Of a stretch of 39,147 nucleotides of DNA, positions 2,904-32,201 are shown piece by piece; within the stretch, counting starts at the first letter, position 1; each line of letters opens with the position of its first letter. The translations under genes and the position numbers were made by a program. The notes below the pieces were generated by a model that worked only from the letters and a program-made list of their open reading frames with translations, searched no databases and was not told where the DNA came from. The DNA is from an uncultured Candidatus Bathyarchaeia archaeon (GTDB lineage: Archaea; Thermoproteota; Bathyarchaeia; Bathyarchaeales; Bathyarchaeaceae): the NCBI GenBank assembly GCA_964347855.1, contig CAYGAE010000003.1, positions 1 to 39,147 of the forward strand, in the 5' to 3' direction.

Positions 2904-3416
2904 CTAAGGGAGAATTTCCGATAGAAGACGACCCAGTTGCTTCGCGGTTTTTTCTACCTGGCTAGTTAAGCCCTCTCCGAACGTGGCGTCCTCCGGCTGT
3001 ATCGCCAGTATAGCAACCTTGGCATCTGTTGTCTTTGCAAGGAATCTGCAGAATATTTGGAGAGGCAAAGCGTGGGTTGATATGGCTGGTTGATTGGCTA
3101 TCTGATCGGGATTTATGAGTTTCGAAGAACCAGGATCAAGGTCTAATGCGGCAGCGTCGACGACTAATATGTGGGTGGGGTTGAATTCTGTTATTGGTTC
3201 TATGAAGCTCTCGGGGACGGTTTCACATTCTATCAGATAAACGCGTTTGGAGACTTTGCCATACAAGTCTTTTACGATTTTTGTGCCGACGAAATCGTCC
3301 TTTCGAAGAGGATTCCCGATCCCGGCAATGACAACTCGCTGAGCGTCAGATAGCCAGGTTTTCAAAGTGACCTCAATATTATTCGTTTCAGTTTTGGGAC
3401 TGCCCATCGTTTCCAA
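2904..3416 (-). CDS. [NiFe]-hydrogenase maturation endopeptidase (HycI/FrhD/HyaD family)
   Basis: 170-aa ORF with family hallmarks: VVIAGIGNPLRKDDFVG near the N-terminus, a mid-protein VVDAA, and STHALPL near the C-terminus. It is the last gene of the minus-strand hdr operon. Confidence 0.8.
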   Translation of the reverse strand: METMGSPKTETNNIEVTLKTWLSDAQRVVIAGIGNPLRKDDFVGTKIVKDLYGKVSKRVYLIECETVPESFIEPITEFNPTHILVVDAAALDLDPGSSKLINPDQIANQPAISTHALPLQIFCRFLAKTTDAKVAILAIQPEDATFGEGLTSQVEKTAKQLGRLLSEILP

Positions 3417-3463: not shown

Positions 3464-4339
3464 TTAGATGAGTTTCAAAACCTTGGATGCATCGACTCTA
3501 AGTTGGCTCAAGGCTAGTTCGTCGGGGTTGAAGCCCATTGCCAATCCTAGGAGTTGCGTGTAGTGAAGTACTGGAATGCCGAAGGTTTCGTTGAAGGTTC
3601 GTTCTATTCTGGGTTGATTGATGTCAAACATCATGTGACAGTAAGGACACACAGTGATCAAAGCTTGGGCCCCAACACTCCTGATATGGCCAAGTTTTTC
3701 TTTAGCCAACCGGAGGGGAATTTGGTCGTTTACGCCGACTATGGGTCCGCCGCAGCACTCAGGTTCATCTATGTAGTCCAAGTATTTCGCTCCAGTTGCC
3801 TCAATTAGGGTTTTGAGAACCTTAGGATTTTCTGGGTCGTCAATGCCTACTTCTTTCGCAGGACGAACGACGTGACATCCAGTATGCTGCGCCACCTGGA
3901 GCTGATTAAGTGGCTTCTGAACGGCGTCTTTGATTTTTTCGAAGCCGATGTCTGTTGAGAGCACGTGAATGAGGTGTTTGATCTTTACTGTTCCTTTAAA
4001 CTCCATGCCGATTTCCTTCAAGTAGTCGTTGACTTTCTCCCTGAGTTTCTTGTCTTCTTTGAGTTCTTTGTTGACGTGGTTTAGGATGCCGAAACAGCCG
4101 TTGCACAGAGTCAGGATGTCTAAGTTCTGTTGCTCCGCTAAACAGAGGTTTCGTGCCGCCAAGGTGAGCATCATGTCGTGATTTACTGGATCCAATGGAA
4201 ATCCACAGCAGTTGAACTCTGGCATCTCCACCAATTCTACGCCAAGTTTATCGAGAACTTTTCTAGCGGAAATCTCGTAACTAGCGATTCTATACGGAGT
4301 AACGCATCCTAGAAAAAATAGGTACTTTAACTCTGGCAT
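3464..4339 (-). CDS. hdrB: Heterodisulfide reductase subunit B (two CCG domains)
   Basis: 291 aa with two CCG-type cysteine motifs (PEFNCCGFPL...LCNGC; EPECCGGPI...VCPYC). It sits 3 nt downstream of hdrC. Confidence 0.92.
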   Translation of the reverse strand: MPELKYLFFLGCVTPYRIASYEISARKVLDKLGVELVEMPEFNCCGFPLDPVNHDMMLTLAARNLCLAEQQNLDILTLCNGCFGILNHVNKELKEDKKLREKVNDYLKEIGMEFKGTVKIKHLIHVLSTDIGFEKIKDAVQKPLNQLQVAQHTGCHVVRPAKEVGIDDPENPKVLKTLIEATGAKYLDYIDEPECCGGPIVGVNDQIPLRLAKEKLGHIRSVGAQALITVCPYCHMMFDINQPRIERTFNETFGIPVLHYTQLLGLAMGFNPDELALSQLRVDASKVLKLI

Positions 4340-4342
4340 TTT

Positions 4343-4894
4343 TTAGGTCTTCTCCTTCTCAAGCGTCTTCGAAAAACCGGTAACGTCGAAAAGTTTGGTG
4401 ATGCTTTCTAAGTTGGCCTTTGGCAGAGAGGGCAATCCTGTCTCTTGCCTTTTTCTCAGCCGCATGTTTGGAATCGTGTAGGCATAGCCTGTTTTCCGGA
4501 TGTTAGAAGCTAACTCCTTGTACACGGCAGGCATGTGGCTCCTTTCTACAGTTAAGTTTCGAAGCGCCCGTACAATGCTGGCGATTCCCACATCTTGCGG
4601 GCAATGGTCGATACACGTAAAGCAGGTAGAACAGAGCCAGATGACATCGTTGGAAAGGAGTCTGTCTTTCAGGCCTAGTTGCGTCATTCGAATGAGTTTT
4701 CTGGGTCGGTAGAAATCATCAAACCGCGCGATTGGGCAGTCGGCTGTGCAAGTTCCGCATTGGAAGCATAACGCGATCTTTTCGGCTCCGGGAAACTTGC
4801 TTATATCGTATTTGAAGCGTGGATCCATTTCGCTTGATTTGACCATCGTTTTTTTAGTTGCCTCTGCTTGTGGCTTTTTCTTTGTTTCAGCCAT
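4343..4894 (-). CDS. hdrC: Heterodisulfide reductase subunit C (2x[4Fe-4S] ferredoxin-like)
   Basis: 183 aa with CFQCGTCTADCP and CSTCFTCIDHCP motifs. Its start overlaps the mvhD stop by 8 nt. Confidence 0.9.
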   Translation of the reverse strand: MAETKKKPQAEATKKTMVKSSEMDPRFKYDISKFPGAEKIALCFQCGTCTADCPIARFDDFYRPRKLIRMTQLGLKDRLLSNDVIWLCSTCFTCIDHCPQDVGIASIVRALRNLTVERSHMPAVYKELASNIRKTGYAYTIPNMRLRKRQETGLPSLPKANLESITKLFDVTGFSKTLEKEKT

Positions 4895-5321
4895 TGCTTG
4901 TTCCTCCAGCCCTTAGTGGGCTCGGTCCGAGTTTCTTTATTTCCTTCGTCATGTCCTTAATAATGGTTGCGAATCTCTCTCCTTCAGACGCCGAGACCCA
5001 CTCCAGTCGTAAACGCTCAGGTTTTAGACCTAAATGTTCCAAGACCTTCTTCAACATTAAAACTCTATGTTGTGCTTTGTAATTTCCAGAGAGGTAGTGA
5101 CAGTCGCCAGAGTGGCAGCCAGCGATGAGAACTCCGTCTGCTCCGCTTCGGAAGGCTTCGAGGATGAAAACTGGGTCAACTCTTCCGCTACACATCACCC
5201 TCACGATTCTAAGGGTTGGAGGATATTGGATTCGGCTAACACCTGCTAGGTCGGCACCGGCATAGGAGCACCAGTTGCAAAGGAAACCCACAATTTTTGG
5301 TTCAAATCCAGGTTTAGTCAT
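4887..5321 (-). CDS. mvhD: MvhD-type [2Fe-2S] adaptor protein (methyl-viologen-reducing hydrogenase delta subunit family), stand-alone
   Basis: 144 aa: FLCNWCSYAGADLAGVSRIQYPPTLRIVRVMCSGRVDP...GADGVLIAGCHSGDCHY. Overlaps the hdrA stop by 8 nt. Confidence 0.9.
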   Translation of the reverse strand: MTKPGFEPKIVGFLCNWCSYAGADLAGVSRIQYPPTLRIVRVMCSGRVDPVFILEAFRSGADGVLIAGCHSGDCHYLSGNYKAQHRVLMLKKVLEHLGLKPERLRLEWVSASEGERFATIIKDMTKEIKKLGPSPLRAGGTSNG

Positions 5322-8300
5322 ATTTTCCTTCCTCCATCAACGCGGCCCGAACTTGGGCAAGAATCTGGTCGTCAGTGAAGTGAAGCATGGATATGGCCTT
5401 AGCAGGGCAAGTGGAGCCACAGACGCCACAACCTTTACATAGAGCCTCGATAACGTGTGCCCTCGACTTTCCATTCATCTCTTCCATCTTGATGGCGCCA
5501 TACTCGCAAACGGGCTCGCAGAATCCGCATCCACTACAGAAGTCTTCGTTAACTCTGGCCACTGCTCCTTCTACTTCCAATACTTTCTTGGACAAAATCG
5601 TGATTGCTCGCGCCGCAGCTGCGGATGCTTGTGAAATGCTCTCTTCGATTGATTTCGGCCAGTGAGCCAACCCACAAAGGAATATGCCATCCGTTGCGAA
5701 GTCAACGGGACGGAGCTTCATGTGTGCTTCCAAGAAGAATCCGTCTTGGTTGAGTGGAACTTTCAGCATTTTTGCTATGTGATCGTTGTCTTGATTTGGA
5801 ATGGTGGCTACGCTCAGCGCCAAAAGGTCCGCCTCAATTGTCAGCCACATCTTGACGACTGGCTCCCAGACCACCATTTTGAGCTTGCCATCCTCTTGAA
5901 TAACCTTCGGCTTGTTTTCATCGTCATAGCGTATGAATAAGACTCCCTTACTTGCAGCCTCACGATAGTAATCCTCTATGAACCCGTATGTTCTCATGTC
6001 TTTGTACAGGACGTAGACGTCTGTTTCAGGGCTTAGCTCCTTAATCTTTAATGCATTTTTTACGGCTTGAGAACAGCATATTCGCGAGCAGTAGTGACGC
6101 TCTTCATTCCTAGAACCAACACATTGAATCATTGCCACAGTCTTAGCGCTAAACTGCCCATTAGCCAGCTTCTCTTCTAATGCACGCTGAGTCAAAACCG
6201 TTTTGTCGACACCATAGAGATACTCTGTCGGCTCATACTCCATGGCTCCAGCGGCAACTATCACAATGCCATGGTTTATCTCCTTTCTTTCTCCACCACA
6301 ACTAAGGGTCGTCTTGAAGTTTCCAACATATCCCTCAACATCGGAGATTTCAGAATTTAGATAAACATGAATTTTCTCGTTCCCATCGACTTCCTTTACG
6401 ATCGATTTCAGCTTTTCTTGCGGGGCCTCAGATCCAAGAAGATAATGTATATGGCGCAGGTGGCCTCCCAGTTCCTTCTCCTTCTCCACCAAATGGACCT
6501 CGAAGCCTTGTTTCGCCAATTCTAAGGCTGCAGTCATTCCTGACAAGCCGCCTCCGATCACTAGACCCGTGGGCGTAACATCTATCACCGGATTCTTGAG
6601 AGGCTTCAACAAGCGGGCTTTGGCGACAATGGATCTGACAAGATCCTTCGCTTTTTCAGTCGCTTCTTCAGGTTCATGCATGTGAACCCAGCTACATTGG
6701 TCACGAATGTTTGCCATCTCAAAGAGGTAAACGTTAAGCCCGGCTTTCCGGATGGTTTCTCTTAAAAGCGGTTCATGAGTTCTTGGAGTGCACGACGCCA
6801 CAACCACGCGGTTAAGGTTTTGTTCCTCTATTGTTTCCCTTATCCTCTTCTGAGCGTCTTCTGAGCACGTGTACAAATTATGCTCTGCGCAAACAACATT
6901 TGGCAACGTTTTAACGTACTCGACGACCTCTGGCACATCGACGACTCCCCCAATATTTATGCCGCAGTGGCAAACAAAAACTCCAATGCGGGGCTCCTCA
7001 TCGGATACGTCTCTCTCTGGTGGATACTCTTTTGCGGTTGTGAGCGTCCCTCTCTCCGACGAAATCAAGCTAGCCGCTTTTGCCGCGGCCCCACTCGCCT
7101 GCGCCACGCTCTCAGGAATGTCTTTGGGAGAAGAAAATGCTCCGCAAACGTATATTCCGGGCTTGGATGTCTCTAGCGGGGAGAACGTTTCAGAGCGACA
7201 GAAGTTGTATCTATTTAGTTTAATGTTCAGCGTTTTGGCCAATTCCTGAGCATGTTTGGGTGGCCTCATCCCAACCGATAGCACTACGAGATTGAATTCT
7301 TCGATCTTAAGGTTCCCATCTTCAACATATCTCAATAAGAGGTTTTGCGATTCCGGAATCTCTTCTATTCGAGGTACTCGAGACCTAACGAAAGTCACTC
7401 CGTATTCTTCTTCTGCTCTATTATAGTAAGCATCAAACTCCTTCCCATAGGCACGCACATCCATAAAGAAAATGGTGCATTGCAGGGTGGGATTGTGTTC
7501 CTTGGCTATGATCGCCTCTTTGATGGCATACATGCAACAAGCTGAAGAGCAGTAATTATTTCCAAGCTTAGCGTCACGCGAACCCACACATTGAATGAAT
7601 GCTATCTTCCGTGGAACCTTACCATCAGAGGGACGTAAGACCAATCCACCATAAGGTCCTGAAGCACTTAGAATACGCTCAAATTCAATGCTAGACACCA
7701 CATTTGAATACTGTCCATAGCCGTACTCCGTTTTGAGTTTTGGATCAAACTCTTCGAAACCTGGTGCCAGTATAATGGATCCAACGTGCAATACGGTTTC
7801 CCTTTCTTTTTCGTCATATTTGACCGCACCTGCCTTACAGATTTCTTGGCAGGTGCCACACCCGATGCATTTTTCTTTGTCAATGGCATAAACTAAGGGA
7901 ACCGCTTGCGGATACTTAACGTAGATCGCAGTTCTTTCGCCTAGGCCTTCATTGAATTCATCTATCGCTTCAACAGGGCATTTTCGAGCGCATAAACCGC
8001 AACCCGTGCACTTCTCTTCATCAATATACCTAGGTTTCCTTAGGCATGTAACTTGGAAGTGCCCTTCTTCACCTTCGACACTCTTTATTTCTGCGCCCAT
8101 AATTAGTTCAATGTTATGGTGCCTTCCAGCCGTGACCAGTTTCGGCGCTAGAATGCACATTGCACAATCATTGGTCGGAAAGGTTTTGTCGAGTTGGGTC
8201 ATGGTGCCGCCTATACTGGTTGATTCATCCAGCAGATACACTTTGAATCCTGAGTCAGCGAGATCGAGTGACGATTGTATTCCAGCGATTCCGCCGCCCA

Positions 8301-8334
8301 CTACGAGTACGGCGCCTACCTTGTCTTTCATCAT
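5314..8334 (-). CDS. hdrA: Tandem (double-module) HdrA-like flavoprotein
   Basis: 1006 aa. Residues 1-~425 are an FAD domain (VVGGGIAGIQSSLDLADSG, QLDKTFPTNDC, FIQCVGSRD, CSSACC) with an inserted 2x[4Fe-4S] ferredoxin (CTGCGLCARKCP, CIGCGTCQEIC). Residues ~448-1006 are an HdrA N-terminal Cys domain (RIGVFVCHCGINIGG), a second FAD domain (VIGGGLSGMTAALELAKQG, IQCVGSRN, CSRICC) without the insert, and a C-terminal ferredoxin (CSGCGFCEPVC, CKGCGVCGSTCP) ending in the HFTDDQILAQV tail. Confidence 0.9.
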   Translation of the reverse strand: MMKDKVGAVLVVGGGIAGIQSSLDLADSGFKVYLLDESTSIGGTMTQLDKTFPTNDCAMCILAPKLVTAGRHHNIELIMGAEIKSVEGEEGHFQVTCLRKPRYIDEEKCTGCGLCARKCPVEAIDEFNEGLGERTAIYVKYPQAVPLVYAIDKEKCIGCGTCQEICKAGAVKYDEKERETVLHVGSIILAPGFEEFDPKLKTEYGYGQYSNVVSSIEFERILSASGPYGGLVLRPSDGKVPRKIAFIQCVGSRDAKLGNNYCSSACCMYAIKEAIIAKEHNPTLQCTIFFMDVRAYGKEFDAYYNRAEEEYGVTFVRSRVPRIEEIPESQNLLLRYVEDGNLKIEEFNLVVLSVGMRPPKHAQELAKTLNIKLNRYNFCRSETFSPLETSKPGIYVCGAFSSPKDIPESVAQASGAAAKAASLISSERGTLTTAKEYPPERDVSDEEPRIGVFVCHCGINIGGVVDVPEVVEYVKTLPNVVCAEHNLYTCSEDAQKRIRETIEEQNLNRVVVASCTPRTHEPLLRETIRKAGLNVYLFEMANIRDQCSWVHMHEPEEATEKAKDLVRSIVAKARLLKPLKNPVIDVTPTGLVIGGGLSGMTAALELAKQGFEVHLVEKEKELGGHLRHIHYLLGSEAPQEKLKSIVKEVDGNEKIHVYLNSEISDVEGYVGNFKTTLSCGGERKEINHGIVIVAAGAMEYEPTEYLYGVDKTVLTQRALEEKLANGQFSAKTVAMIQCVGSRNEERHYCSRICCSQAVKNALKIKELSPETDVYVLYKDMRTYGFIEDYYREAASKGVLFIRYDDENKPKVIQEDGKLKMVVWEPVVKMWLTIEADLLALSVATIPNQDNDHIAKMLKVPLNQDGFFLEAHMKLRPVDFATDGIFLCGLAHWPKSIEESISQASAAAARAITILSKKVLEVEGAVARVNEDFCSGCGFCEPVCEYGAIKMEEMNGKSRAHVIEALCKGCGVCGSTCPAKAISMLHFTDDQILAQVRAALMEEGKYD

Positions 8335-9104
8335 GTTACCTCCAGTGCGATGTATAGGGGGTCCTCCCCTTCCATTCTATCCAGGGTAACTAGCCCTCGC
8401 TGCTTCAAGATCACCATGTGGCGCAACACGATTTTCGGGTCCAAGCGCAAATGTTTGGCTAAACCTTCAACGGACATTGGCTTATTCTTCACAAGAAGAT
8501 GAATTCTGCTTCGTACGTACTCTGCATCGATACTCTCATCCATCAATTCGTCAAACTCCTTTTGTTCCACTTTTTCACCGTACACGTTTTCTTCTTCGAC
8601 TAGCCTCTTCTCTCTGCCCACCAGCGTTCGCAGTCTAGAATCTCCCGCCACTGCTTTGGCTGCCATAAGGCTGGCCAACAATTTTTTGTCTCGATTTCCT
8701 CCGGCCAAAGGAGACGGCCCTAGCGCCGTCACGTGATTTCTAAAATCGTTAACGATGTGTGCGAAGCGTTCAATTTCGGACGCATAAGCCCAGTCTAACC
8801 CAAGGCGCCCTGGTTCAAGACCAGTTCGCGAAATGAGTTTCTTTAGCATCGCAATTTTCCGTTCTGCCTGAAGGTTTCCTTCAACGTAGTGACAATCGGG
8901 TGGGTGACAGCCTATTACCAAAACCCCGTCTGCCCCCTTGGCAAAAGTTTCTAGCACGATAACTGGATCGATTCTCCCAACACACATTACTCGTACTATG
9001 TGTATTTTGGGGTGACCAGGTATGGTGTCAGTACCTGCAATGCCGATATCTGTAGGCAGACTCCAGTTACATACAAAACCAATGATTTTAGGTCTAAACA
9101 TCAT
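8331..9104 (-). CDS. MvhD-like domain fused to a C-terminal winged-helix-like domain
   Basis: 257 aa. The N-terminal ~140 aa align with MvhD (IIGFVCNWSLPTDIGIAG...IHIVRVMCVGRIDP...GADGVLVIGCHPPDCHY), but the CNWC motif is CNWS here. The C-terminal ~60 aa (MSVEGLAKHLRLDPKIVLRHMVILKQRGLVTLDRMEGEDPLYIAL) have a wHTH pattern. ATGA overlaps on both sides. Confidence 0.8.
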   Translation of the reverse strand: MMFRPKIIGFVCNWSLPTDIGIAGTDTIPGHPKIHIVRVMCVGRIDPVIVLETFAKGADGVLVIGCHPPDCHYVEGNLQAERKIAMLKKLISRTGLEPGRLGLDWAYASEIERFAHIVNDFRNHVTALGPSPLAGGNRDKKLLASLMAAKAVAGDSRLRTLVGREKRLVEEENVYGEKVEQKEFDELMDESIDAEYVRSRIHLLVKNKPMSVEGLAKHLRLDPKIVLRHMVILKQRGLVTLDRMEGEDPLYIALEVT

Positions 9105-10834
9105 GCGGCTTCTCTCCCCAAAACGGCTGCAACATTAGCCACAATTTGAGCATCTGTAAACCGTCGCAAGGTAATCGCTCGGTCGGGACAACTTGCGCTA
9201 CAGATCCCACAGCCCTTACATAGGTCTTCGTCCACTTGCGCAATCCCCATTTCATTCTTCTTTACGGCGCCAGTGGGGCAGACTACCGCGCAGAGGTTGC
9301 ACCCAGTACACAAAGTTTCATCGATCACTGCTTTGTCAGCTTCACACAACTCCTCGCTTCCGAGACATTCAGTGCATGGTCCGCATTCGAGACACCTCCG
9401 GGCTTCGAACATGGCGACTTCTTTAGTCGTCGCTAGGAGTTCATCGGCTTTCTCAAAGCTTACTTTCTGTCTCCCCACGTCTAGGTGTGGAACGGTATAT
9501 CTCTCAGGCTTTTTGGTCATCTTTTCCGAGTCTTTAACCCAAGTTGTCTCTTCAATTTCCTCTTCTCGACCAATCCTCAAATCCTCGCCATTCAAATAAC
9601 GGCCTATTGACTCCGCCGCTCGTTTGCCTGCACCTACAGCCTCTATTACGCTTGCAGGACCGGTGACTATGTCACCTCCTGCAAAAACACCAGGGATCCT
9701 AGTTTCCAGTGTTAATGGATCAACCGAAATACCACGTGCACGCTCATCCAAAAGAATGGAAGGTAGACATGAAGTTTCCGCCAGTTGACCGATTGCCGCA
9801 ATTACTGTATCCGTCTCATACGTGTGCTCAGACCCTTGGATGGGTATTGGACGCCTTCTGCCGCTTGCGTCAGGTTCTCCCAGCTCCATCCTCAAACATT
9901 CTATAAGCTTGATCCTGCCTCCCTCACCAATAATTTGCTTGGGTGCAACTAGAAATTGGAACTTAACTCCTTCTTCTCTTGCAGCATCTATTTCGTGGGG
10001 AAGTGCTGGCATTTCTTTCCGGGAGCGACGGTAGAGAATCGTGACCTCTTTTGCCCCAAGTCTTAGCGATGTGCAAGCGGCATCGATGGCGCTGTTGCCT
10101 CCTCCGATGACCGCAACTTTCTCGCCTACGTCAATCGTTTTTCCTAGGGATACATGCCTTAAGAATTCAACTGCGTGAAAAACACCCTCCAAATCTTCGC
10201 CCGGTATCCCCAGTTTTGTGCTCAATTGTGCTCCGTTCGCTATGAATGTGGCTTTGTAGCCCTCATTTCGTAGAGTGTCAAGCTGTACGTCTTTGCCGAA
10301 TTCTACTCCTGTCTTGATCTCCACACCTAGATCTTGGATGTACGCTATTTCATTATTTACAACATATTTTTGCAGACGATAGTCAGGGATACCGTATCGC
10401 ATCATGCCGCCAGGTTCAGGCATACGCTCAAAAACTGTAACTGGATAGCCGAGTTTTGCGAGTTCGTATGCAGCGCTCAGTCCTGCTGGTCCCGCGCCAA
10501 CTATCGCCACTTTTTCACGGTGCGTTTTGGGTATGGGATCTGGTTTGATTCGCCCTTGTTCACGTTCAATGTCTGCAGCAAGTCTTTTCAAATAACGAAT
10601 GCCCACAGGCTGATCGATGTTTCTTCTTGAACACGCATCCTGGCAAGGGCTGAAGCAGACTCTGCCGCAAATTGCCGGAAAAGGCATGCTCTTTCTCACT
10701 AGTTCCACCGATTCTTTGAACTTCCCTTGCTGAAGTAGGGCAATATATCCCTGAACATTCACGTCGGCAGGACATGCGGCACGACAGGGAGGTAGCTTCC
10801 GTTTGTTCTTGAAAGCGCAACTAAGAGCGGTCAT
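9101..10834 (-). CDS. GltD/NfnB-family NAD(P)H-dependent FAD oxidoreductase with a C-terminal HdrA-style 2x[4Fe-4S] ferredoxin tail
   Basis: 577 aa. The N-terminal Cys region is CRAACPADVNVQGYIALLQQGKFKESVELVRKSMPFPAICGRVCFSPCQDAC. Two dinucleotide folds are present (VAIVGAGPAGLSAAYELAKLG; VAVIGGGNSAIDAA), as is GVFAGGD. The C-terminal ~100 aa add CTGCNLCAVVCP and CKGCGICSASCP and end with AITLRRFTDAQIVANV, the same tail seen at the end of the HdrA ferredoxin domains in this window. Confidence 0.85.
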   Translation of the reverse strand: MTALSCAFKNKRKLPPCRAACPADVNVQGYIALLQQGKFKESVELVRKSMPFPAICGRVCFSPCQDACSRRNIDQPVGIRYLKRLAADIEREQGRIKPDPIPKTHREKVAIVGAGPAGLSAAYELAKLGYPVTVFERMPEPGGMMRYGIPDYRLQKYVVNNEIAYIQDLGVEIKTGVEFGKDVQLDTLRNEGYKATFIANGAQLSTKLGIPGEDLEGVFHAVEFLRHVSLGKTIDVGEKVAVIGGGNSAIDAACTSLRLGAKEVTILYRRSRKEMPALPHEIDAAREEGVKFQFLVAPKQIIGEGGRIKLIECLRMELGEPDASGRRRPIPIQGSEHTYETDTVIAAIGQLAETSCLPSILLDERARGISVDPLTLETRIPGVFAGGDIVTGPASVIEAVGAGKRAAESIGRYLNGEDLRIGREEEIEETTWVKDSEKMTKKPERYTVPHLDVGRQKVSFEKADELLATTKEVAMFEARRCLECGPCTECLGSEELCEADKAVIDETLCTGCNLCAVVCPTGAVKKNEMGIAQVDEDLCKGCGICSASCPDRAITLRRFTDAQIVANVAAVLGREAA

Positions 10835-10892: not shown

Positions 10893-11486
10893 TTAAAGGC
10901 TCAGAATTCGCGGTTGACCTAGCTTGTTCACCAACGTTTTATATTGGGGTAGCTTCATCAAATCCCTTAACTCTTCTTCTAATGTGATTACGTTGTTAGG
11001 TTTGATTTCGGCTATCCATAATTCATGCGGCTCTTTGTTGATTATGAATGGCTCGTCTTGCAGACCTTCATTGATTTTGATGACTCTGCCACTGACTGGA
11101 GAGGTTAGGTCGAACATGAACATCCACGTTTCAACAACCCCTAGGGGCTCTCCCTTCTTCACTTCAAATCCGACATGATGCGTCTGGATACTAGCTACTC
11201 CTTTCAAACGCCTTTGGGCGTAGTCGGCTAAGCCTACTCTTATGTTTCCTTCAGGAGTCACCATTGCCCACATGTGCTCAGGGGTGTAAAGCAGCCGTTC
11301 TTGGACTACTGGATATTCAGGCCGCTTCTCAGCTGTCTTCTCATGTCTTCGCTCAAGTTCATCAAGGCGCACTCGAATAGCTTCAGACACAAACTCGGAG
11401 AGACTACGGTAGCGGCCCTTCTCGAGCGTCCTCTTTGCCGCTGCCACGAGTTCTTGTCTAAGGCGTATAGTTTTCCATTCTGGCAT
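10893..11486 (-). CDS. Ribbon-helix-helix (CopG-like) domain fused to a glycine-cleavage-H-like domain lacking the lipoyl-lysine; putative regulator
   Basis: 197 aa. The N-terminus (KTIRLRQELVAAAKRTLEKGRYRSLSEFVSEAIRVRLDELE) fits an RHH pattern. Residues ~65-165 align colinearly with GcvH (YTPEHMWA...VGLADYAQ..L...GEPLGVVETWMFMFDLTSPVSGRVIKINE...P..IN.EP). The position of the lipoylated Lys (ESVKA in E. coli GcvH) is Met (codon 11121-11123). Confidence 0.75.
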   Translation of the reverse strand: MPEWKTIRLRQELVAAAKRTLEKGRYRSLSEFVSEAIRVRLDELERRHEKTAEKRPEYPVVQERLLYTPEHMWAMVTPEGNIRVGLADYAQRRLKGVASIQTHHVGFEVKKGEPLGVVETWMFMFDLTSPVSGRVIKINEGLQDEPFIINKEPHELWIAEIKPNNVITLEEELRDLMKLPQYKTLVNKLGQPRILSL

Positions 11487-11508: not shown

Positions 11509-12099
11509 TTAGTGAAGCCGACCGTCAAGTCTAGCAACTAGTTTCTTGTACTCTCCTAAACTTAGCAGCCCGTTCATCCACGAGTTAACTTCTGTGTTCT
11601 CAGGCTGGATCTCAACAATCCATTGATAGGGTTCGACGTTCAATCTGAATGGGTCGTCGATGACCGTCTTGTTGACTGAGAGTATCTCTCCGTTTAATGG
11701 AGAATATAGGTCGTATGTGAACCACCAGGTTTCAGCTACACCAAAGGGTTCATCTTTAGAAACCTCCTTTCCGACATCATCTGTTCGAATATTGACTATC
11801 TCTCGGAGTTGGCCCTGGAAATAATCAGTTATCCCGATCTTTACATTTCCTTGAGGAGTTGCTTGGGCCCAGATGTGTTCTGGCACGTAGAACAACCGCG
11901 CTTGCAGTTGAAGCGTTCTGCTGACCCTATCTCGCTCCAGATATTCCGATACTCTTTCTTTGGCTAACGTTTGTAGGCGACTTCGAATGGCTTCTGAAGC
12001 GAATTCAGTGAGGCTTTGATACTGTCTTTTCTCTACTTCTTTCTTCATTTCATCTGCGAGTTCTTGTCGAATCCTTACAGTTTTCCATTTTTGCGGCAT
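11509..12099 (-). CDS. Paralogous RHH + GcvH-like (lysine-less) protein; putative regulator
   Basis: 196 aa with the same architecture as 10893-11486 (KTVRIRQELADEMKKEVEKRQYQSLTEFASEAIRSRL; YVPEHIWAQ...IGITDYFQGQL...DEPFGVAETWWFTYDLYSPLNGEI). The lipoyl-Lys position is Trp (codon 11722-11724). A strong AGGAGGTGG lies just upstream of the ATG. Confidence 0.75.
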   Translation of the reverse strand: MPQKWKTVRIRQELADEMKKEVEKRQYQSLTEFASEAIRSRLQTLAKERVSEYLERDRVSRTLQLQARLFYVPEHIWAQATPQGNVKIGITDYFQGQLREIVNIRTDDVGKEVSKDEPFGVAETWWFTYDLYSPLNGEILSVNKTVIDDPFRLNVEPYQWIVEIQPENTEVNSWMNGLLSLGEYKKLVARLDGRLH

Positions 12100-16478: not shown

Positions 16479-16521
16479 TTTTGTTCTTCACTAAGAGATT
16501 GTCGTAAGTTGCGTGAATCAC

Positions 16522-21345: not shown

Positions 21346-21364
21346 AGAGGAGCGCGAAATCAGA

Positions 21365-21892: not shown

Positions 21893-22764
21893 CAAGATAC
21901 GCTCTATTCCTAGGCTGCACCATCCCAGCTCGTCAACCAAACTACGAGTTATCAGCAAGAAAAGCGCTATCTAAACTTGGAATCGAACTTGTTGATCTAC
22001 CAAACATGACATGCTGTTGCCCTCCACCCATTCAATCAATAGATTTGGAAACCAGCTTAGCAGTAGCTACATACAACATTTGCCTAGCTGAAGAAGCCAA
22101 CCTCGAGATAGTCACGCTATGCAGCGGCTGTTTCGAGTCCCTCGCTATGGCAAACAGCATGCTAAAAGACGACGAACAACTGAAAGCAAAGATCAACAGA
22201 ATCTTGTCCGCAGCGGGAAAAGAATTTGTGGGCAGCAAGGAAGTGAAACACTTCCTTCAAGTTTTGGTGGACGATGTAGGACTAGAACGCCTTAAAGCGA
22301 GCGTCACCAAGCCGCTCAGCAACCTAAAAGTAGCGCCGTTCTATGGTTGCCACGCCCTTAGACCGAGTGAGCTACTGAGACTCGACGATCCAGAGCGTCC
22401 AAACATTCTAGAGAACTTAATTGAAGCTCTAGGTGCATCAACTGTCGAGTATCGGAACAAACTGAAGTGCTGTGGAGGTCTTCTAAGAGGTTACTCTGAC
22501 GATCTTGCCCTTGAACTCGCCAGTGAAAAACTTGCAAACACAACAAAGGCTGGTGCCGACTGCATTGCAACCCTTTGTCCCTTCTGCTTCATTGCCCTGG
22601 ACATGGGACAACTGCAGATAAAACATAAGCTCAACAAAGTCTACGATATGCCGATAATCCACTACTCAGAGCTCTTAAGCCTAGCATTGGGAGTAGATCC
22701 GAAGGAGCTTGCCCTTGAAAGCCATAAGATAAAAGCCGATAAAGTACTCAGCAAGATACTCTAG
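21889..22764 (+). CDS. hdrB: Heterodisulfide reductase subunit B
   Basis: 291 aa with two CCG domains (NMTCCCPPP...LCSGC; KLKCCGGLL...LCPFC). ATGA overlap with hdrC. Colinear with the 3464-4339 paralog. Confidence 0.92.
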   Translation: MTRYALFLGCTIPARQPNYELSARKALSKLGIELVDLPNMTCCCPPPIQSIDLETSLAVATYNICLAEEANLEIVTLCSGCFESLAMANSMLKDDEQLKAKINRILSAAGKEFVGSKEVKHFLQVLVDDVGLERLKASVTKPLSNLKVAPFYGCHALRPSELLRLDDPERPNILENLIEALGASTVEYRNKLKCCGGLLRGYSDDLALELASEKLANTTKAGADCIATLCPFCFIALDMGQLQIKHKLNKVYDMPIIHYSELLSLALGVDPKELALESHKIKADKVLSKIL

Positions 22765-24196
22765 TAACTGAACGCTGCTTATCTTTACTCTTTTTCTTTC
22801 TCATAACATACCTGTGAATACTGCGTGCTGCCTTCTTTCCTGCCCCCATGGCGCTGATGACCGTCGCTGCTCCGCTGACCACATCTCCACCAGCATAGAC
22901 TCCCTTTTTGCTGGTTTTTCCAGTTCCATCATTAACGATTATAGTACCCCATCTGGTGGTCTTTAGTCCCTTGGTAGTTCGTTGGATGATTGGATTTGGA
23001 GTTTGTCCTATGGCTATCACCACGGTGTCCACATCCATGAGGAATTCGGAGCCTTCTATGGGAACTGGTCTTCTTCGCCCTGATTCGTCTGGTTCTCCAA
23101 GCCGCATCTTTATGCATTCCATTCCTTTCACCCAGCCGCGTTCATCGCCTAGAAATCTGACAGGAACGGTGAGAAACCTGAATCTTATTCCCTCCTCCTC
23201 TGCGTTTTCTATTTCTTCCAGTCTAGCAGGCATTTCCTTCCTAGACCTTCGATAAACAATCCATACCTCTGCTCCCAGCCTTAACGAACATCTCGCAGAG
23301 TCCATGGTAACGTTGCCGCCGCCTATCACTGCAACCTTCTTGCCTACTCTAATTGGGGTGTCGTATTCCGGAAACATGTAAGCTTTCATTAGGTTCACTC
23401 GGATCAGGAATTCGTTGGCTGAGTATATTCCACCAAGGTTCTCTCCGGGTATTCGCATGAAGCGGGGAAGCCCTGCCCCGGTACCGACGAAGACGGCGTC
23501 AAACCCGCGATCAATCAACTCATCTATTGTGTATAACCTTCCGATCATGTGGTCAGTTTTGAACTCAACGCCAAGCTTTTTGACGTAATCAACCTCGGCT
23601 TGCACTATTTTTTTGGGTAGCCTAAATTCTGGGATTCCGTACATAAGTACGCCGCCTGGGGCATGAAGCGCTTCGAATATGACAACCTCATGTCCAAGTC
23701 TTGCCAAATCTGCTGCTGCTGTGAGTCCAGCAGGTCCAGATCCCACAACCGCCACTTTTCCGCGCGTGGATGACCTTGATTTGGGCGGAATAGTGACTCC
23801 TCTCTGGAGTTCGTAGTCAGCGACAAACCTCTCTAACCTTCCAATAGCCATGGAGTCTCCCTTCTTGCCAAGTACACAAAACTTTTGACATTGGCTTTCT
23901 TGTGGACAAACTCGGCCACAAATTGATGGTAGGCTATTCTTTTCCTTTACAATTCTGATGGCTTCGCCGAAGTTTTTTTCTCTGATCGCTTTAATAAATG
24001 CGGGTATGTCTACTTCCACGGGGCAGCCTTGTATACACTGGGGTCTAGGACACTGTATGCACCTTTCAGCTTCTGCCACGGCTTGCTCCTCTGAGTAGCC
24101 CAGTGCCACTTCGTTGAAGTTGTGGATGCGTTCTTTTGGGTCTTGTTTGAGCATGGGAACTGTTTCTTTTCTGATTTTGGGTTTGGGCTTGCTCAT
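22748..24196 (-). CDS. nfnB: NfnB/SudA/GltD-family NADPH-dependent FAD/[4Fe-4S] oxidoreductase (large subunit)
   Basis: 482 aa: CIQCPRPQCIQGCPVEVDIPAFIKAIREKNFGEAIRIVKEKNSLPSICGRVCPQESQCQKFC, VAVVGSGPAGLTAAADLARLG, VAVIGGGNVTMDSA, GVYAGGD. The start overlaps the nfnA stop. Confidence 0.85.
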   Translation of the reverse strand: MSKPKPKIRKETVPMLKQDPKERIHNFNEVALGYSEEQAVAEAERCIQCPRPQCIQGCPVEVDIPAFIKAIREKNFGEAIRIVKEKNSLPSICGRVCPQESQCQKFCVLGKKGDSMAIGRLERFVADYELQRGVTIPPKSRSSTRGKVAVVGSGPAGLTAAADLARLGHEVVIFEALHAPGGVLMYGIPEFRLPKKIVQAEVDYVKKLGVEFKTDHMIGRLYTIDELIDRGFDAVFVGTGAGLPRFMRIPGENLGGIYSANEFLIRVNLMKAYMFPEYDTPIRVGKKVAVIGGGNVTMDSARCSLRLGAEVWIVYRRSRKEMPARLEEIENAEEEGIRFRFLTVPVRFLGDERGWVKGMECIKMRLGEPDESGRRRPVPIEGSEFLMDVDTVVIAIGQTPNPIIQRTTKGLKTTRWGTIIVNDGTGKTSKKGVYAGGDVVSGAATVISAMGAGKKAARSIHRYVMRKKKSKDKQRSVTRVSC

Positions 24197-25020
24197 AGGC
24201 TTCTTCCTCCCTTCTCATAAAATACGAATGCAAGCTTCTCTTCAGGAGAATACATTTTCAGCCGAGCCATCAACTCTTCAAAATCAACTTGATGCCCATC
24301 GAAGTCTGGGCCGTCAACGCAAGCGAACATTGTTTTGCCGCCGACGGTTACTCTGCATGCTCCACACATTCCCATCCCATCCACCATTAATGGAATCAGG
24401 GTCACAATTGTGGGTGTGTTGTATGGACGAGTGAGTTCTGAAACTGTTTTCATCATTACTATTGGGCCCATGGCTACTACGCGGTCGATCTTCTCTTCTT
24501 TGAACAGGTTTTCAATGAAGTCTAGTCCCTTGTGACCCTTTGTTCCGTCATCTGTGGCCACATAAAGCTCATCGCATGCCTCTCGCATTTCTTTTTCAAA
24601 AATTAGTTGGCTTTCCGTTCTAGCTCCTAGTACTCCTATGACCCTGTTGCCCACCTCGTGGAAGGCCTTGGCTTGGAAACGTAGAGGAGCCACCATCACT
24701 CCTCCACCAATGCAAAGCACGGTTCCAAACATCTCGATTTCAGCAGGTTTTCCCAGGGGGCCTAACAAGTCTAGGATGTGGTCTCCTTCTTCTAATTTTC
24801 CAAGCTTTTTAGTTGTTTTGCCAACTTCGTGGCAGACCACTGTTATCGTTCCTTTTTCAACGTCTGCATCAGCGGTAGTAAGTGGAATCCTTTCTCCATG
24901 TTCATCTATTCTCAAAATTACGAATTGTCCAGGTTTTGTTTTTGCGGCTACTTCCCTTGCTGAAAACTCGAATAGGTTAATGTGGGGAACCAGTTCCCGT
25001 TTCGTCACGATCCTATACAA
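24193..25020 (-). CDS. nfnA: NfnA/SudB (PyrK-like) FAD/[2Fe-2S] small subunit
   Basis: 275 aa: PGQFVILRIDEHGERIPLT (FAD-binding barrel), LCIGGGVMVAP, and C-terminal MVDGMGMCGACRVTVGGKTMFACVDGPDFDGHQVDF, as in characterised NfnA. It begins 1 nt after the upstream hdrA-mvhD stop. Confidence 0.85.
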   Translation of the reverse strand: MYRIVTKRELVPHINLFEFSAREVAAKTKPGQFVILRIDEHGERIPLTTADADVEKGTITVVCHEVGKTTKKLGKLEEGDHILDLLGPLGKPAEIEMFGTVLCIGGGVMVAPLRFQAKAFHEVGNRVIGVLGARTESQLIFEKEMREACDELYVATDDGTKGHKGLDFIENLFKEEKIDRVVAMGPIVMMKTVSELTRPYNTPTIVTLIPLMVDGMGMCGACRVTVGGKTMFACVDGPDFDGHQVDFEELMARLKMYSPEEKLAFVFYEKGGRSL

Positions 25021-25021
25021 C

Positions 25022-27160
25022 CTAGTCGCCTCTTTCCTTAACCCTTAAAGGATTTGGTCCAAGTTTCCTTATCTTTTCCACAAAATTCGTCATCATGGTC
25101 GCAAATTTCTGCCCTTCAGATGATGAAGCGAACTCTATTTCGAGGCGTTCCGGGTCTATGTGGAGGGTTTTCAGGGCCTTTTTCATTACGTCCACTCTGC
25201 TTTTTGCCTTCACGTTACCATCGATGTAATGGCAGTCGCCTATGAGGCATCCCGTTATGATAACTCCATCGGCACCATTCAGGAAAGCCTCCATGGCATG
25301 AAACACATCCACTCTTCCGCTGCATGGAACTCTTAGGATTCGAACATTCGGTGGATATTGGATCCTTGAGACCCCTGCGAGGTCAGCCGCCGCGTAAGAA
25401 CACCATTGACATGCAAAGCACAATACGATGGGTTCGAAGCTTTCGTTTGGACTCGTAAGCTTCTTCGGTTTTAGCAGCGCCTCAATTGCTGCCACAATCT
25501 GTTCATCCTTAAAGTGTATGAGTTGCATAGATCCCATTGGGCATTCTGCTGCGCACACACCGCAACCTTTACAGTTAGCTTCAATGATGTAGGGCTGTCC
25601 GAAGGGTGAAGCCGCAATAGCGTCAAAAATACATGAGACCACGCACGCATCGCAACCGACGCATATCTCCATGTCAACCGAAGCTTTTACAGCGTTAGTC
25701 TTTATTTTTCTGGCGGCCATTGGAATGCCTGCTCTGGAGGCTGCAGCATAAGCTTGAGCGATGCTTTCAGTGACGTCTTTTGGTCCGTGGGCAGTGCCGC
25801 AGACATATATCCCCTCTGATGCAAAGTCAACTGGTCTTAGTTTTGGATGAGCCTCCATAAAGAAGCCGTCGGAACCTACAGGAACCTTTAGTGTGGAAGA
25901 GAGTTTTCTCCCACCCTCGTGCTGAATCAGAGGTGTTGATAAGACGACCAAGTCGCTGTCCATCTCAATTTCAGCGTCTAAATACGCGTCGTAAACTGTG
26001 ACGGCTAACTTTCCATCAGCTTTTGAGGTTACTTGTGGAGGTTTGTCCTGCTCATAACGTATGAAGTTGATGAAGTTCTCCCTTGCTTCAAGATAAGAAT
26101 CTTCGTATTCAGCGTAAGTTTGCAGGTCTCTGAAAAGGATGCTGATTTCCACATTTGGATACAATTTTTTGAGTAGCATAGCATTGTTGAGGGCTACCAT
26201 GCAACATATTCTTGAACAGTATGTTCTGCCAGTTTTTTCTCTAGCTCCCACACATTGGATCATAACAACTCTTTTAGGTTTCTCGAGTTCGCCTTTTTTG
26301 AGAAGCTGCTCAAGTTCGAGCTGTGTTACAACGTTTTCATTTTCCTTGTACTCGTACATTCCCACCGGCTTGAACTCATTGGCTCCGGTGGCCACTATTA
26401 TTGTTCCTACATTAATTTGTTCAGGTTCATTGGAATCCTTCTTTTGAAGCATCACGTCAAAGCTTCCAATGAACCCTTTTGCTTCTTGAACGAGGGTTGA
26501 CAGGTGAAGATGTATGTTGCTGTTCGCCTTCACGGCTGTGACCAACTCTTGAAGAACTTCTGAAGCGTCACGTTCGGTGGGCTGCAGCTTGTGTAGATGT
26601 CTCAGCATTCCGCCTAGCTCTGCTTCTTTCTCAACCAGGTGAACATTGAAGCCTTGTCTTGCAATGGACATGGCCGCAGCCATTCCAGCGATTCCGCCGC
26701 CTATCACCATTGCTGAAGGTTTTATCTCGAGTTCTGGCTCTGTTTGAGGTTCAAGGTGGCTTGCTTTGGCGACAGCCATTCTAATGAGGTCTTTGGCTTT
26801 CTCTGTGGCCTCTTCTGGACGGTGCATGTGAACCCATGAGGAATGCTCTCGGATGTTTACCATTTCAAAAAGGTACTTGTTTAATCCTGCTTCTTCGCAT
26901 GCCTTTCTGAAGACCGGTTCATGGGTCGCGGGTGTGCAGGATGCACCCACGACCCGGTTGAGGTTACACTTCTTTATGCGTTCTTTGATCAGACTTAATC
27001 CTGCGGATGAGCACAAGTAAAGGTTTTCCTCGGCGCAGACAACATTAGGCAGAGTTTTGGCATACTCCACAACCTTTGGAACCTCAATCACTCCGCCTAT
27101 GTTGAAGCCGCAGTGACAGACGAAAACCCCAATCCTCAACTCTTCCTTGGCTGGTTCCAT
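25022..27160 (-). CDS. hdrA: HdrA-like (insert-less) flavoprotein fused to MvhD (QmoB-like architecture)
   Basis: 713 aa from ATG 27160: MEPAKEELRIGVFVCHCGFNIGG, VIGGGIAGMAAAMSIARQG, IQCVGAREK, CSRICC, C-terminal ferredoxin (CVGCDACVVSC, CKGCGVCAAECP), and an HFKDEQIVAAI tail. The MvhD domain follows (LCFACQWCSYAAADLAG...ILRVPCSGRVD...GCLIGDCHY). Colinear with residues ~448-1006 of the 1006-aa protein plus the stand-alone MvhD. Confidence 0.88.
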   Translation of the reverse strand: MEPAKEELRIGVFVCHCGFNIGGVIEVPKVVEYAKTLPNVVCAEENLYLCSSAGLSLIKERIKKCNLNRVVGASCTPATHEPVFRKACEEAGLNKYLFEMVNIREHSSWVHMHRPEEATEKAKDLIRMAVAKASHLEPQTEPELEIKPSAMVIGGGIAGMAAAMSIARQGFNVHLVEKEAELGGMLRHLHKLQPTERDASEVLQELVTAVKANSNIHLHLSTLVQEAKGFIGSFDVMLQKKDSNEPEQINVGTIIVATGANEFKPVGMYEYKENENVVTQLELEQLLKKGELEKPKRVVMIQCVGAREKTGRTYCSRICCMVALNNAMLLKKLYPNVEISILFRDLQTYAEYEDSYLEARENFINFIRYEQDKPPQVTSKADGKLAVTVYDAYLDAEIEMDSDLVVLSTPLIQHEGGRKLSSTLKVPVGSDGFFMEAHPKLRPVDFASEGIYVCGTAHGPKDVTESIAQAYAAASRAGIPMAARKIKTNAVKASVDMEICVGCDACVVSCIFDAIAASPFGQPYIIEANCKGCGVCAAECPMGSMQLIHFKDEQIVAAIEALLKPKKLTSPNESFEPIVLCFACQWCSYAAADLAGVSRIQYPPNVRILRVPCSGRVDVFHAMEAFLNGADGVIITGCLIGDCHYIDGNVKAKSRVDVMKKALKTLHIDPERLEIEFASSSEGQKFATMMTNFVEKIRKLGPNPLRVKERGD

Positions 27161-27164
27161 TTGG

Positions 27165-28478
27165 CTATCCCCACACAAGGGTAGAACAGGCCACCTCTGC
27201 AGCTTTGGCTGCGGCCGCACTGGCTTGCGTAACGGATTCAGAAATATCCTTGGGCGCTTGACAATATCCACAAACAAAGACTCCTTCCACTTTTGTCTCA
27301 ACAGACATAAGCAATGGGTCTTTGGTTTTGAAGAAACCATATTCATTCAATTCTAAACCAAGAATTTTTCCCAAAACCTCATTGTCATCTCTCGGAACTA
27401 GAGCCGGACAAAGCACAACCAAATCTGCACGCAATTCTTCCATTTTCCCTTTTGTGATATCTTCGTATCGAACAAAAAGATCCTTTGTCGCTGGATCTTC
27501 TATGACTGCAGAGACGCGTCCATTAACGTATTTGACACCCCATTGGTCTCTGGCTCTAGTGACGAACTCTTGGAACCGTTTCCCAAACACTCTTAAATCA
27601 ATATACAAAATGTAAACTTCACATTGAGGTTCGTGCTCTCGGACTAAGATCGCCTCTTTTGTGGCGTACATGCAACAGACGCTGGAGCAGTATGGGAACC
27701 CCTTCTGTTGAGTTCTTGAGCCAACGCATTGGGCAAAAACTATCTTGCGAGGATGTTTATTATCTGAAGGCCTCAAAAGTTCTCCACGAGTCGGCCCAGA
27801 AGCGTTAATGAGCCTTTCAAATTCCAGCGATAAAAGAACATTCTTGTATCGTTTATAACCGTACTCACTTATCGACATCGGATCGTAAAGTTCTAAGCCT
27901 GTAGCCAATATTATACTTGAAACACTAAACGTCATTCTCTTGGGTTTTTGATCGAAGTTGATTGCGTGGGCCTGACAAAATTTTTCGCACACTCGACATA
28001 CTCCTTTCTGAAAGAAGAGGCAATTGTCCTTGTCTATTATGGCTATACGGGGCACTGCCTGTGGAAAAGGCATGTAGACGGCTTTCCGCATTCCCACGCC
28101 CATATCGAATTCGCTTGGCACCTTAACTGGGCATTTTTCTGAGCACGCACCGCAACCAGTACATTTGTCAGCGTCAATAAACCTTGGGTTTTTCAAAACC
28201 TCAACCTTGAAGTTTCCAGCAGAGCCCCTAACTTCCTTAACTTCTGAGCATGTGAGCAGCTTGATGTTTGGGTGACGGAAGCACTCAATCATTTTTGGCG
28301 CGAGTATGCATATAGAACAATCCATTGTTGGGAATGTCTTATCAAGCTGAGCCATTCGCCCCCCGATGCCTGGGGATTTCTCGACGAGATATACTTTGAG
28401 CCCTCTGTCAGCGAGGTCCAAAGACGCTTGTATTCCAGCTATGCCTCCGCCAACTACAAGTACAGCATTGTTGCCCAA
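27165..28478 (-). CDS. hdrA: HdrA-like FAD + inserted-ferredoxin module only (QmoA-like size)
   Basis: 437 aa: VVGGGIAGIQASLDLADRG, QLDKTFPTMDC, CTGCGACSEKCP, CLFFQKGVCRVCEKFC, FAQCVGSR, CSSVCC. Colinear with residues 1-~430 of the 1006-aa protein. Its stop is 4 nt before the next ATG. Confidence 0.88.
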   Translation of the reverse strand: MGNNAVLVVGGGIAGIQASLDLADRGLKVYLVEKSPGIGGRMAQLDKTFPTMDCSICILAPKMIECFRHPNIKLLTCSEVKEVRGSAGNFKVEVLKNPRFIDADKCTGCGACSEKCPVKVPSEFDMGVGMRKAVYMPFPQAVPRIAIIDKDNCLFFQKGVCRVCEKFCQAHAINFDQKPKRMTFSVSSIILATGLELYDPMSISEYGYKRYKNVLLSLEFERLINASGPTRGELLRPSDNKHPRKIVFAQCVGSRTQQKGFPYCSSVCCMYATKEAILVREHEPQCEVYILYIDLRVFGKRFQEFVTRARDQWGVKYVNGRVSAVIEDPATKDLFVRYEDITKGKMEELRADLVVLCPALVPRDDNEVLGKILGLELNEYGFFKTKDPLLMSVETKVEGVFVCGYCQAPKDISESVTQASAAAAKAAEVACSTLVWG

Positions 28479-31978: not shown

Positions 31979-32201
31979 CTTTATGTCTCCGGTTGTGATG
32001 GTCTCGAAGTGGCTTTTAGAATTAAGCATAATCACCATTTAAACTCTTAAACATCTCGCTTAAAACCTCTAGATGTCAAAGCAGACAATCTTGACCAAGT
32101 AGAATCGTTCTCTCATGTCTTACTTTTAGCACAAGAGCCAAAAGCGCGCAGATTCTCCCAGGCTTTGGTTTTTTCACTTTATTGGCAATCTCTTGATAAG
32201 G

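Follow-up and report, generated by a model that had tools for sequence, protein, structure and literature searches.

A Bathyarchaeial type II HdrA that probably serves as its own heterodimeric partner, with its unfused two-gene form on the same contig

A 39,147-nt stretch of an uncultured Candidatus Bathyarchaeia archaeon (contig CAYGAE010000003.1; here called the window) encodes on its reverse strand, at positions 5314..8334 with the stop codon included, a 1006-aa HdrA-like protein that carries two sites for flavin adenine dinucleotide (FAD). The same two modules stand as separate genes elsewhere in the window, and a sequence-only reading of this DNA had described the locus as a visible gene fusion or fission and asked which of the two flavins bifurcates. 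We describe the protein as a fused double HdrA of type II, also called BamE-type, in which two HdrA classes in a single chain probably act as their own heterodimeric partner. The conservation data support the first flavin as the one that bifurcates, as reported for BamE.

Domain architecture of the fused HdrA

The solved HdrA of Methanothermococcus thermolithotrophicus (PDB 5ODC_A) was used as the reference for the domain map, and motifs were compared by aligning the seven HdrA-type modules that the window encodes. Residues 9–371 of the query aligned with HdrA residues 146–510 (1e-126), corresponding to the thioredoxin-reductase-like (TrxR-like) FAD core including its inserted ferredoxin, residues 446–596 with HdrA 2–152, the N-terminal Cys domain, and residues 851–997 with HdrA 502–648, the end of the core and the C-terminal ferredoxin. 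Pfam located FAD/NAD(P)-binding stretches near residues 9 and 591, two Pyr_redox_2/NAD_binding_8 stretches in all, together with four ferredoxin-type motifs, and two GxGxxG sites are present at residues 13 and 594. The single polypeptide thus holds two TrxR-like FAD cores, as is characteristic of type II HdrA.

The first half (residues 1–425; 7060..8334, reverse strand, as are all features of this gene) is an A6-type module with FAD site 1. Its motifs are GGGIAG and DKTFPTNDCAMC, in which C57 and C60 of the CxxC pair correspond to HdrA C194 and C197. The inserted ferredoxin (residues ~101–180; 7795..8034) has two [4Fe-4S] motifs of the form CxxCxxCxxxC (C109–C119 and C156–C166), the cysteines of the TrxR-domain [4Fe-4S] cluster are 249, 262, 266 and 267, K272 is the equivalent of HdrA K409, and E219 is present. 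Neither an N-terminal Cys domain nor a C-terminal ferredoxin was found in this half in the 5ODC and seven-module alignments. A linker of residues 426–447 (SERGTLTTAKEYPPERDVSDEE; 6994..7059) follows, open in frame and conserved among orthologues. The second half (residues 448–1006) is of A12 type. It begins with an HdrA N-terminal-type Cys domain (residues 448–585; 6580..6993), with CHCG and ASCTPR cysteines and the invariant C455, C457 and C515, and continues with the second TrxR-like FAD core (residues 586–915; 5590..6579), which has GGGLSG, its own four cluster cysteines (738, 749, 753 and 754) and K759. It ends with the C-terminal ferredoxin domain (residues 916–1006; 5317..5589), whose two [4Fe-4S] motifs read CxxCxxCxxxCP. 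In the seven-module alignment this half contains no DKTFPT/CxxC motif and no insert.

These alignments bear out what the sequence-only reading had proposed: two complementary half-sets of HdrA domains in one 1006-aa frame, the first with the inserted ferredoxin, the second with the N-terminal Cys domain and the C-terminal ferredoxin, and a linker at about 6994–7059. The motif within residues 1–425 reads DKTFPTNDCxxC, and the frame of the linker contains no stop. That reading had also named simple duplication as the pattern contrary to its proposal. The halves share only 31–33% identity and are not simple duplicates, and complementary domains were found instead.

The best match by both sequence (1.6e-218) and fold is the canonical HdrA of the MvhADG-HdrABC complex (5ODC), and all cofactor motifs are recognizable. 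In canonical HdrA all five domains belong to a single flavin core, and two identical protomers make up a symmetric dimer with two bifurcation sites, whereas the window protein spreads these domains over two unequal cores of one chain. NCBIfam scores were below the cut-off for both HdrA2 (1051 bits against 1100) and HdrA (776 against 1400), and HdrA2 matched in three separate stretches, so that the protein does not classify as a canonical type I HdrA. The top Foldseek matches were HdrA chains, aligned one chain at a time, with template modelling (TM) scores on the target of 0.68–0.72 (0.68 for 5ODC_A). No fused HdrA was present in the PDB sequence copy or the fold library up to 2026-04-08, the BamE entries being unreleased. 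In public gene calls the protein begins at the second ATG and has 1005 aa; in the sequence ATGATGA the start codon and the stop codon of the gene upstream overlap.

The fusion is conserved across several phyla

Because the same organism also carries the two modules as adjacent genes 4 nt apart, a lost stop codon could mimic a fusion, and the long open reading frame (ORF) might be an assembly or frameshift artefact that joins two such genes. Against this, nearly all of the 120 best protein clusters (77–100% identity; NCBI, JGI, ENA and Logan assemblies), which are independent of one another, have a length of 1004–1007 aa. A genome scan restricted to one genome per species found at least 587 loci with a relative, distributed over several phyla, of which 80 were kept. 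These 80 relatives cover residues ~1–1000 of the fused HdrA, and their hosts are archaea of the Bathyarchaeia, of the Jordarchaeia and Promethearchaeia (Asgard), and of the Methanomassiliicoccales and Thermoplasmata, and bacteria of the Desulfobacterota and Desulfotomaculum-like Firmicutes, including the cultured Desulfotruncus alcoholivorax and Desulfallas. The linker residues are invariant among 29 orthologues, and in the trees described below the fused halves form clades of their own, supported by 200/200 bootstraps for first halves and 175/200 for second halves. Judged by the conserved length, the wide distribution and the conserved linker, the fusion is genuine and not an artefact; the artefact explanation is effectively refuted and retains next to no probability.

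Tandem copies were also observed. A Methanomassiliicoccales locus (L013, 5846–20923) has four consecutive fused HdrA genes of 1021, 1007, 1003 and 1005 aa with 261-aa ORFs between them, and an Asgard contig (L024, 3080–12997) has a split A6–A12 pair, one 274-aa ORF and then two tandem fused genes.

The split pair and the history of the fusion

The unfused form in the window consists of a 437-aa small subunit, an A6-type HdrA (27165..28478, reverse strand), and a 712-aa large subunit, an A12-type HdrA fused to MvhD (25022..27160, reverse strand). By alignment and tree, the small subunit is a paralogue of the first half, with 48–49% identity over its full length. The large subunit is a paralogue of the second half plus MvhD, with 48% identity over 563 aa, and its MvhD domain shares 58% identity with the free MvhD encoded at 4887–5321. 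Aligned with 5ODC, the 712-aa protein covers HdrA 2–237 and then 318–654, the insert being cleanly missing, and it has Asn at the position equivalent to K409. The two genes are joined by the sequence TAG, CCAA, ATG. The description of the split modules as separated by a stop and 4 nt before an ATG, with MvhD fused to the second module in this copy and encoded by the separate next gene at the fused copy, was thus accurate.

The length of the large subunit is 710–721 aa in more than 100 clusters, and the pair belongs to a conserved four-gene unit of A6, A12-MvhD, NfnA-like and NfnB-like genes, found in the window at 22748–28478 and also in L081 (6680–12362) and L082. In the window the latter two are an NfnA-like gene (24193–25020) and an NfnB/GltD-like gene (22748–24196), both on the reverse strand and together forming the 22748..25020 part of the conserved split operon. 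No HdrBC, HdrD, apr, sat or qmoC gene was found within the split-pair operon. The operon combines two different bifurcation-type flavoprotein families.

A neighbour-joining tree with 200 bootstraps was calculated over 342 columns of the shared core. The input comprised 6 canonical HdrAs, 10 A6-type and 8 A12-type split genes, and both halves of 53 fused proteins, each half entered separately. First halves grouped with the A6 genes in 179/200 bootstraps and second halves with the A12 genes in 193/200. Within these groups the fused halves were monophyletic to the exclusion of every split gene, bar the divergent L031, while the split genes formed basal, non-monophyletic grades outside the fused clades. 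The split pair of the window clustered with other Bathyarchaeial split pairs. L031 (540–3914), from a Thermoplasmata metagenome-assembled genome, encodes a 1124-aa fused HdrA that lies outside the main fused clade in both halves and may be very divergent or an independent fusion.

The fused and split loci of the window are 48% identical to each other, whereas the window protein is 52–58% identical to bacterial and Asgard fused proteins. A recent fission or fusion within this contig is rejected by these identities and by the trees. The description of the locus as a visible gene fusion or fission therefore holds insofar as both forms are present, but not as a recent local event. Given the 48% identity and the placement of split genes outside the fused clade, the split pair and the fused gene are best read as old paralogues, and the trees indicate one old fusion of an adjacent A6–A12 pair, with the unfused lineage persisting alongside.

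One predicted bifurcation circuit per chain

Canonical HdrA forms a homodimer in which three N-terminal-domain cysteines of one protomer and Cys197 of the other coordinate one [4Fe-4S] cluster. To follow the corresponding ligands, conservation was assessed in 47 archaeal and bacterial fused homologues that the related loci supplied. The 41 cofactor-ligand and motif positions checked were invariant across these homologues, and every cluster ligand was invariant (47/47), including the 3+1 cysteine set that is divided between the halves (C455, C457 and C515 with C60). A cluster shared between the two sides of a pseudo-dimer interface requires such invariance. The FAD glycines were invariant except for G14 (G in 40, A in 7).

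From the observed domain and ligand content, conservation, gene order and phylogeny we infer an intramolecular pseudo-dimer, the identity of its bifurcating flavin, its donor and its acceptors. The second half would contribute the three cysteines of the shared cluster and the C-terminal ferredoxin that receives electrons from MvhD. The first half would complete the shared cluster through C60, the Cys197 equivalent, pass low-potential electrons to ferredoxin by way of its inserted ferredoxin, and feed HdrC and HdrB from its TrxR-domain cluster. As the parts of the two halves are complementary, each chain would possess one complete bifurcation circuit and no more. With BamE as the model, the first half would hold the bifurcating FAD, and the FAD of the second half with its adjacent cluster would be mainly structural or non-bifurcating.

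The flavin-side residues differ between the halves in a manner consistent with this assignment. Lys and Glu of the first half are each present in 47/47 homologues, whereas the Lys position of the second half is Lys in 33/47, the others being Q, R, N, H, E, S or L, and its Glu position is Glu in 41/47. The split large subunit of the window likewise has Asn at that Lys position. At 47% against 67% mean pairwise identity, the first part of the second core is also less conserved. Moreover, the second half lacks the CxxC pair, the partner N-terminal cluster and the inserted ferredoxin, and so would have no low-potential exit from its FAD. Together, the invariant Lys and Glu of the first half, their relaxation in the second and the missing exit support a single bifurcating flavin in the first half. 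In a 2026 cryo-electron microscopy preprint (10.64898/2026.04.10.717634), BamE is described as an HdrA dimer fused into one chain, and bifurcation is assigned to its first FAD only (TrxR1; Cys59–Cys62, Lys280), while the second FAD (TrxR2, Gln768) is not at a branch point.

Several points weigh against this interpretation. Both halves of the window protein keep the Lys, the Glu and the full TrxR-domain cluster, so that sequence alone leaves room for a second active flavin, and a 2025 survey proposed two bifurcation sites for type II HdrA (PMC12054007). The operon has two MvhD proteins for one C-terminal ferredoxin in the chain, which leaves the wiring of the second adaptor unexplained. The 39-kb window contains no mcr or coenzyme M/coenzyme B genes, which bears on the disulfide substrate. 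The likeness to BamE rests on published residue numbers and a shared layout, and the AlphaFold model of the fused HdrA, built with 29 orthologues, is of moderate quality only (predicted local distance difference test score 67, predicted TM score 0.70).

An alternative is that both flavins are catalytic, either as two bifurcation or confurcation sites or as a bifurcating FAD accompanied by a second redox-active FAD, which could form a separate entry, for example for an NAD(P)H module acting through the MvhD–winged helix-turn-helix (wHTH) adaptor. The window protein and most of its Bathyarchaeial orthologues keep K759 and E720, the cysteines of the second TrxR-domain cluster are invariant (47/47), hdrAA is flanked by two MvhD genes, and it is for type II HdrA that the 2025 survey suggested two flavin-based electron bifurcation reactions (PMC12054007). 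However, the missing low-potential exit described above, the loss of the Lys in 14/47 and of the Glu in 6/47 family members, and the position of the second FAD of BamE away from the branch point make catalysis by both flavins unlikely. Specifically for the Bathyarchaeial enzyme, use of both flavins, by two entries (NAD(P)H via GltD-Fd/MvhD-wHTH and H2 via Mvh/MvhD) or by two coupled bifurcations, is rated marginally lower still. For the homologue BamE, published structural work identifies the first flavin as the one that bifurcates, and the conservation data presented here support this assignment for the family.

A different function is suggested by the architecture of the split pair, a small HdrA-like protein and a larger HdrA-like protein ending in MvhD, which by description is that of QmoA/QmoB of sulfate reducers. 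Both Qmo subunits are homologous to HdrA, and an MvhD-like domain is part of QmoB (PMC3333476). The split pair might accordingly be a Qmo-type module that delivers electrons to adenosine 5'-phosphosulfate (APS) reductase in sulfur metabolism, a reading that would extend to the fused gene, and ‘type II’ qmoAB-like genes near hdrA do occur in organisms without Apr or Dsr. Yet no aprAB, sat, qmoC, dsr or cytochrome b genes are present in the 39 kb, and the conserved partners of the split pair are NfnA-like and NfnB-like genes, whose operon encodes no QmoC, HdrBC/HdrD, AprAB or Sat. As for the fused gene, hdrCB lies downstream of it, and its location in Firmicutes is a Wood-Ljungdahl cluster. A role in sulfur metabolism is consequently very improbable. 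The resemblance to QmoA/QmoB noted by the sequence-only reading, which had also remarked on the lack of QmoC among the window genes, extends to architecture but not to genetic context.

Relation to known double HdrAs

Both the fused HdrA and the unfused pair of genes have been published before, and the window gene is a correct rediscovery and a good example of them. The HdrA of the Moorella MetFV-HdrABC-MvhD complex has two FADs, one of which was proposed to bifurcate (Buckel and Thauer review; Mock et al. 2014, summarised in PMC5861303 and PMC9012536). Chadwick et al. (2022) described complementary tandem or fused HdrAs in anaerobic methanotrophic archaea (ANME) and Moorella, and proposed that such HdrAs form heterodimers or act as their own partners, the Moorella HdrA being of this kind (PMC9012536). 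A 2024 survey of archaeal fusions found double-HdrA fusions to be common in Asgard and TACK archaea (Thaumarchaeota, Aigarchaeota, Crenarchaeota and Korarchaeota), and the 2025 survey identified type II HdrA as a single fusion of the type I classes A6 and A12 (PMC12054007). Since the architecture, the origin from two HdrA classes and the structure of one member are published, the locus opens no new question.

Type II HdrA, classes A3/A4, is the same fusion of an A6-type and an A12-type module as the window protein (PMC12054007), and the complementary pattern of Cys197 and N-terminal domain is that of HdrA3/4, 5/6 and 12/13 (PMC9012536). The split genes of the window correspond to the tandem unfused pairs of methane-metabolizing archaea (PMC12054007, PMC9012536). 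According to the text of PMC9012536 the module order of ANME HdrA3/4 is the opposite. The published type II surveys cover ANME, methanogens and alkane oxidizers, often with genes for FdhB and molybdopterin proteins, whereas the window has an operon with GltD-Fd and MvhD-wHTH. The likeness to the Moorella thermoacetica MetFV-HdrABC-MvhD complex is by published description, and metFV genes do not lie next to the window gene.

A close match in layout is BamE, which belongs to the class II benzoyl-CoA reductase of Geobacter metallireducens. Both proteins are single chains of ~1000 aa with two HdrA-like units, of which the first has the CxxC pair, the inserted ferredoxin and the Lys (Cys59/62 and Lys280 in BamE; C57/60 and K272 in the window protein) and the second ends with the C-terminal ferredoxin. 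As to the two FADs and seven [4Fe-4S] clusters of the BamE type, the window protein was judged by sequence proxies (Lys/Glu) only. BamF is an MvhD with an added wHTH (10.64898/2026.04.10.717634), and the product of 8331–9104, directly upstream of hdrAA, is an adaptor of the same composition. The systems differ in that the second unit has Lys at position 759 in the window protein but Gln768 in BamE, that HdrB and HdrC are separate with intact CCG motifs in the window but represented by the fused, partly degenerate BamD in the Bam system, that the window operon has an extra plain MvhD gene, and that its likely donor module is a GltD-like flavoprotein. No genes for BamBC (the tungsten enzyme of the aldehyde ferredoxin oxidoreductase type), BamGHI or NuoEFG/HydABC-type proteins were found in the window, and the locus does not qualify as a class II benzoyl-CoA reductase.

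The operon of the fused gene

The fused gene lies in an operon on the reverse strand in the order GltD-Fd, MvhD-wHTH, HdrAA, plain MvhD, HdrC and HdrB, with gaps of -4, -4, -8, -8 and +3 nt. The first gene (9101..10834; Pfam and NCBIfam) encodes a 577-aa GltD/NfnB-like NAD(P)H flavoprotein that ends in an HdrA-type ferredoxin domain and is likely the electron-input module. It is followed by the 257-aa MvhD domain protein with a C-terminal wHTH (8331..9104; Pfam), which has a BamF-like adaptor layout. Downstream of hdrAA are the 144-aa MvhD (4887..5321), which overlaps the hdrAA stop by 8 nt, HdrC with two [4Fe-4S] motifs (4343..4894; Pfam) and HdrB with two CCG domains, both CCG motifs being intact (3464..4339; Pfam). 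The tight overlap from GltD-Fd to HdrB suggests a soluble NAD(P)H-fed complex, in which NAD(P)H electrons would be split between a disulfide at HdrB and ferredoxin, or the reaction would run in the reverse direction.

This gene order is kept across Bathyarchaeia at 63–88% identity, and 66 of the 80 related loci have an MvhD gene after the fused gene. The homologues of Desulfotruncus and Desulfallas, 54–55% identical to the window protein, are found in Wood-Ljungdahl clusters, that of Desulfotruncus within the acs cluster. In the Desulfotruncus alcoholivorax locus (L036), the MvhD gene after the fused HdrA (7941–8327) has an in-frame TGA at the conserved Cys of G-C-H-x-G-D-C, which probably encodes selenocysteine. 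Selenocysteine has been reported for BamF and other bacterial MvhD/HdrA proteins.

After hdrB, a gene for a HycI-type hydrogenase maturation protease is present at 2904–3416, as it is in several Bathyarchaeial relatives; despite this neighbour, the fused-HdrA operon contains no hydrogenase gene. Upstream of the operon, two paralogous proteins of ~197 aa (10893–11486 and 11509–12099) have a ribbon-helix-helix-like N-terminus and a GcvH fold, and the pair is conserved upstream of the GltD-Fd/MvhD-wHTH/HdrAA operon in Bathyarchaeia. They were considered as lipoyl-disulfide substrates of HdrB, in the manner of sHdr/LbpA of sulfur oxidizers, and this was dropped since the lipoyl-lysine is replaced by Met or Trp in both and the ribbon-helix-helix-like segment is present. 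By their sequences the GcvH-like proteins are more likely regulators.

Further genes of the window

Between 5314 and 35678 the genes make up an Hdr island; within the 39 kb there are seven HdrA-type flavin cores and six MvhD domains. Three further HdrA-MvhD fusions are encoded at 18922–21345, 29597–32038 and 33204–35678, accompanied by an MvhG/MvhA hydrogenase (16513–18911), a second HdrC/HdrB pair (21329–22764), a TrxR-like gene (28628–29572) and a polyferredoxin (32249–33220). The HdrA-MvhD at 18922–21345, located beside MvhGA and HdrCB, has no N-terminal-domain cysteines (FLSDCG in place of CHCG, AESLPK in place of ACSPR) and carries a 14-residue insertion after the CxxC motif; given the absent cysteines, it may be without the N-terminal cluster or rely on another paralogue.

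At the end of the window, 36418–39147 encodes RNA polymerase Rpb1 domains 2 to 5 in one ORF that runs off the stretch, and the large subunit A appears to be unsplit. Many archaea have separate A' and A'' genes, and unsplit forms occur in some TACK lineages. A 924-aa ORF on the forward strand (31–2805) had no Pfam match at E<=1e-5.

Implications

A single-chain asymmetric HdrA fixes how flavin, ferredoxin arm and HdrBC are wired to one another. The residual value of the locus lies in the natural comparison offered by one Bathyarchaeia contig between the fused form, accompanied by HdrBC and a GltD-like donor, and the unfused form, which has NfnAB-like partners and no HdrBC, to which the same contig adds three or four canonical HdrA-MvhD genes. 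If true, the use of both flavins by the Bathyarchaeial enzyme would represent a mode of operation that no HdrA has so far been shown to use. The comparison of fused and unfused forms could guide biochemistry on what abundant sediment archaea bifurcate onto.

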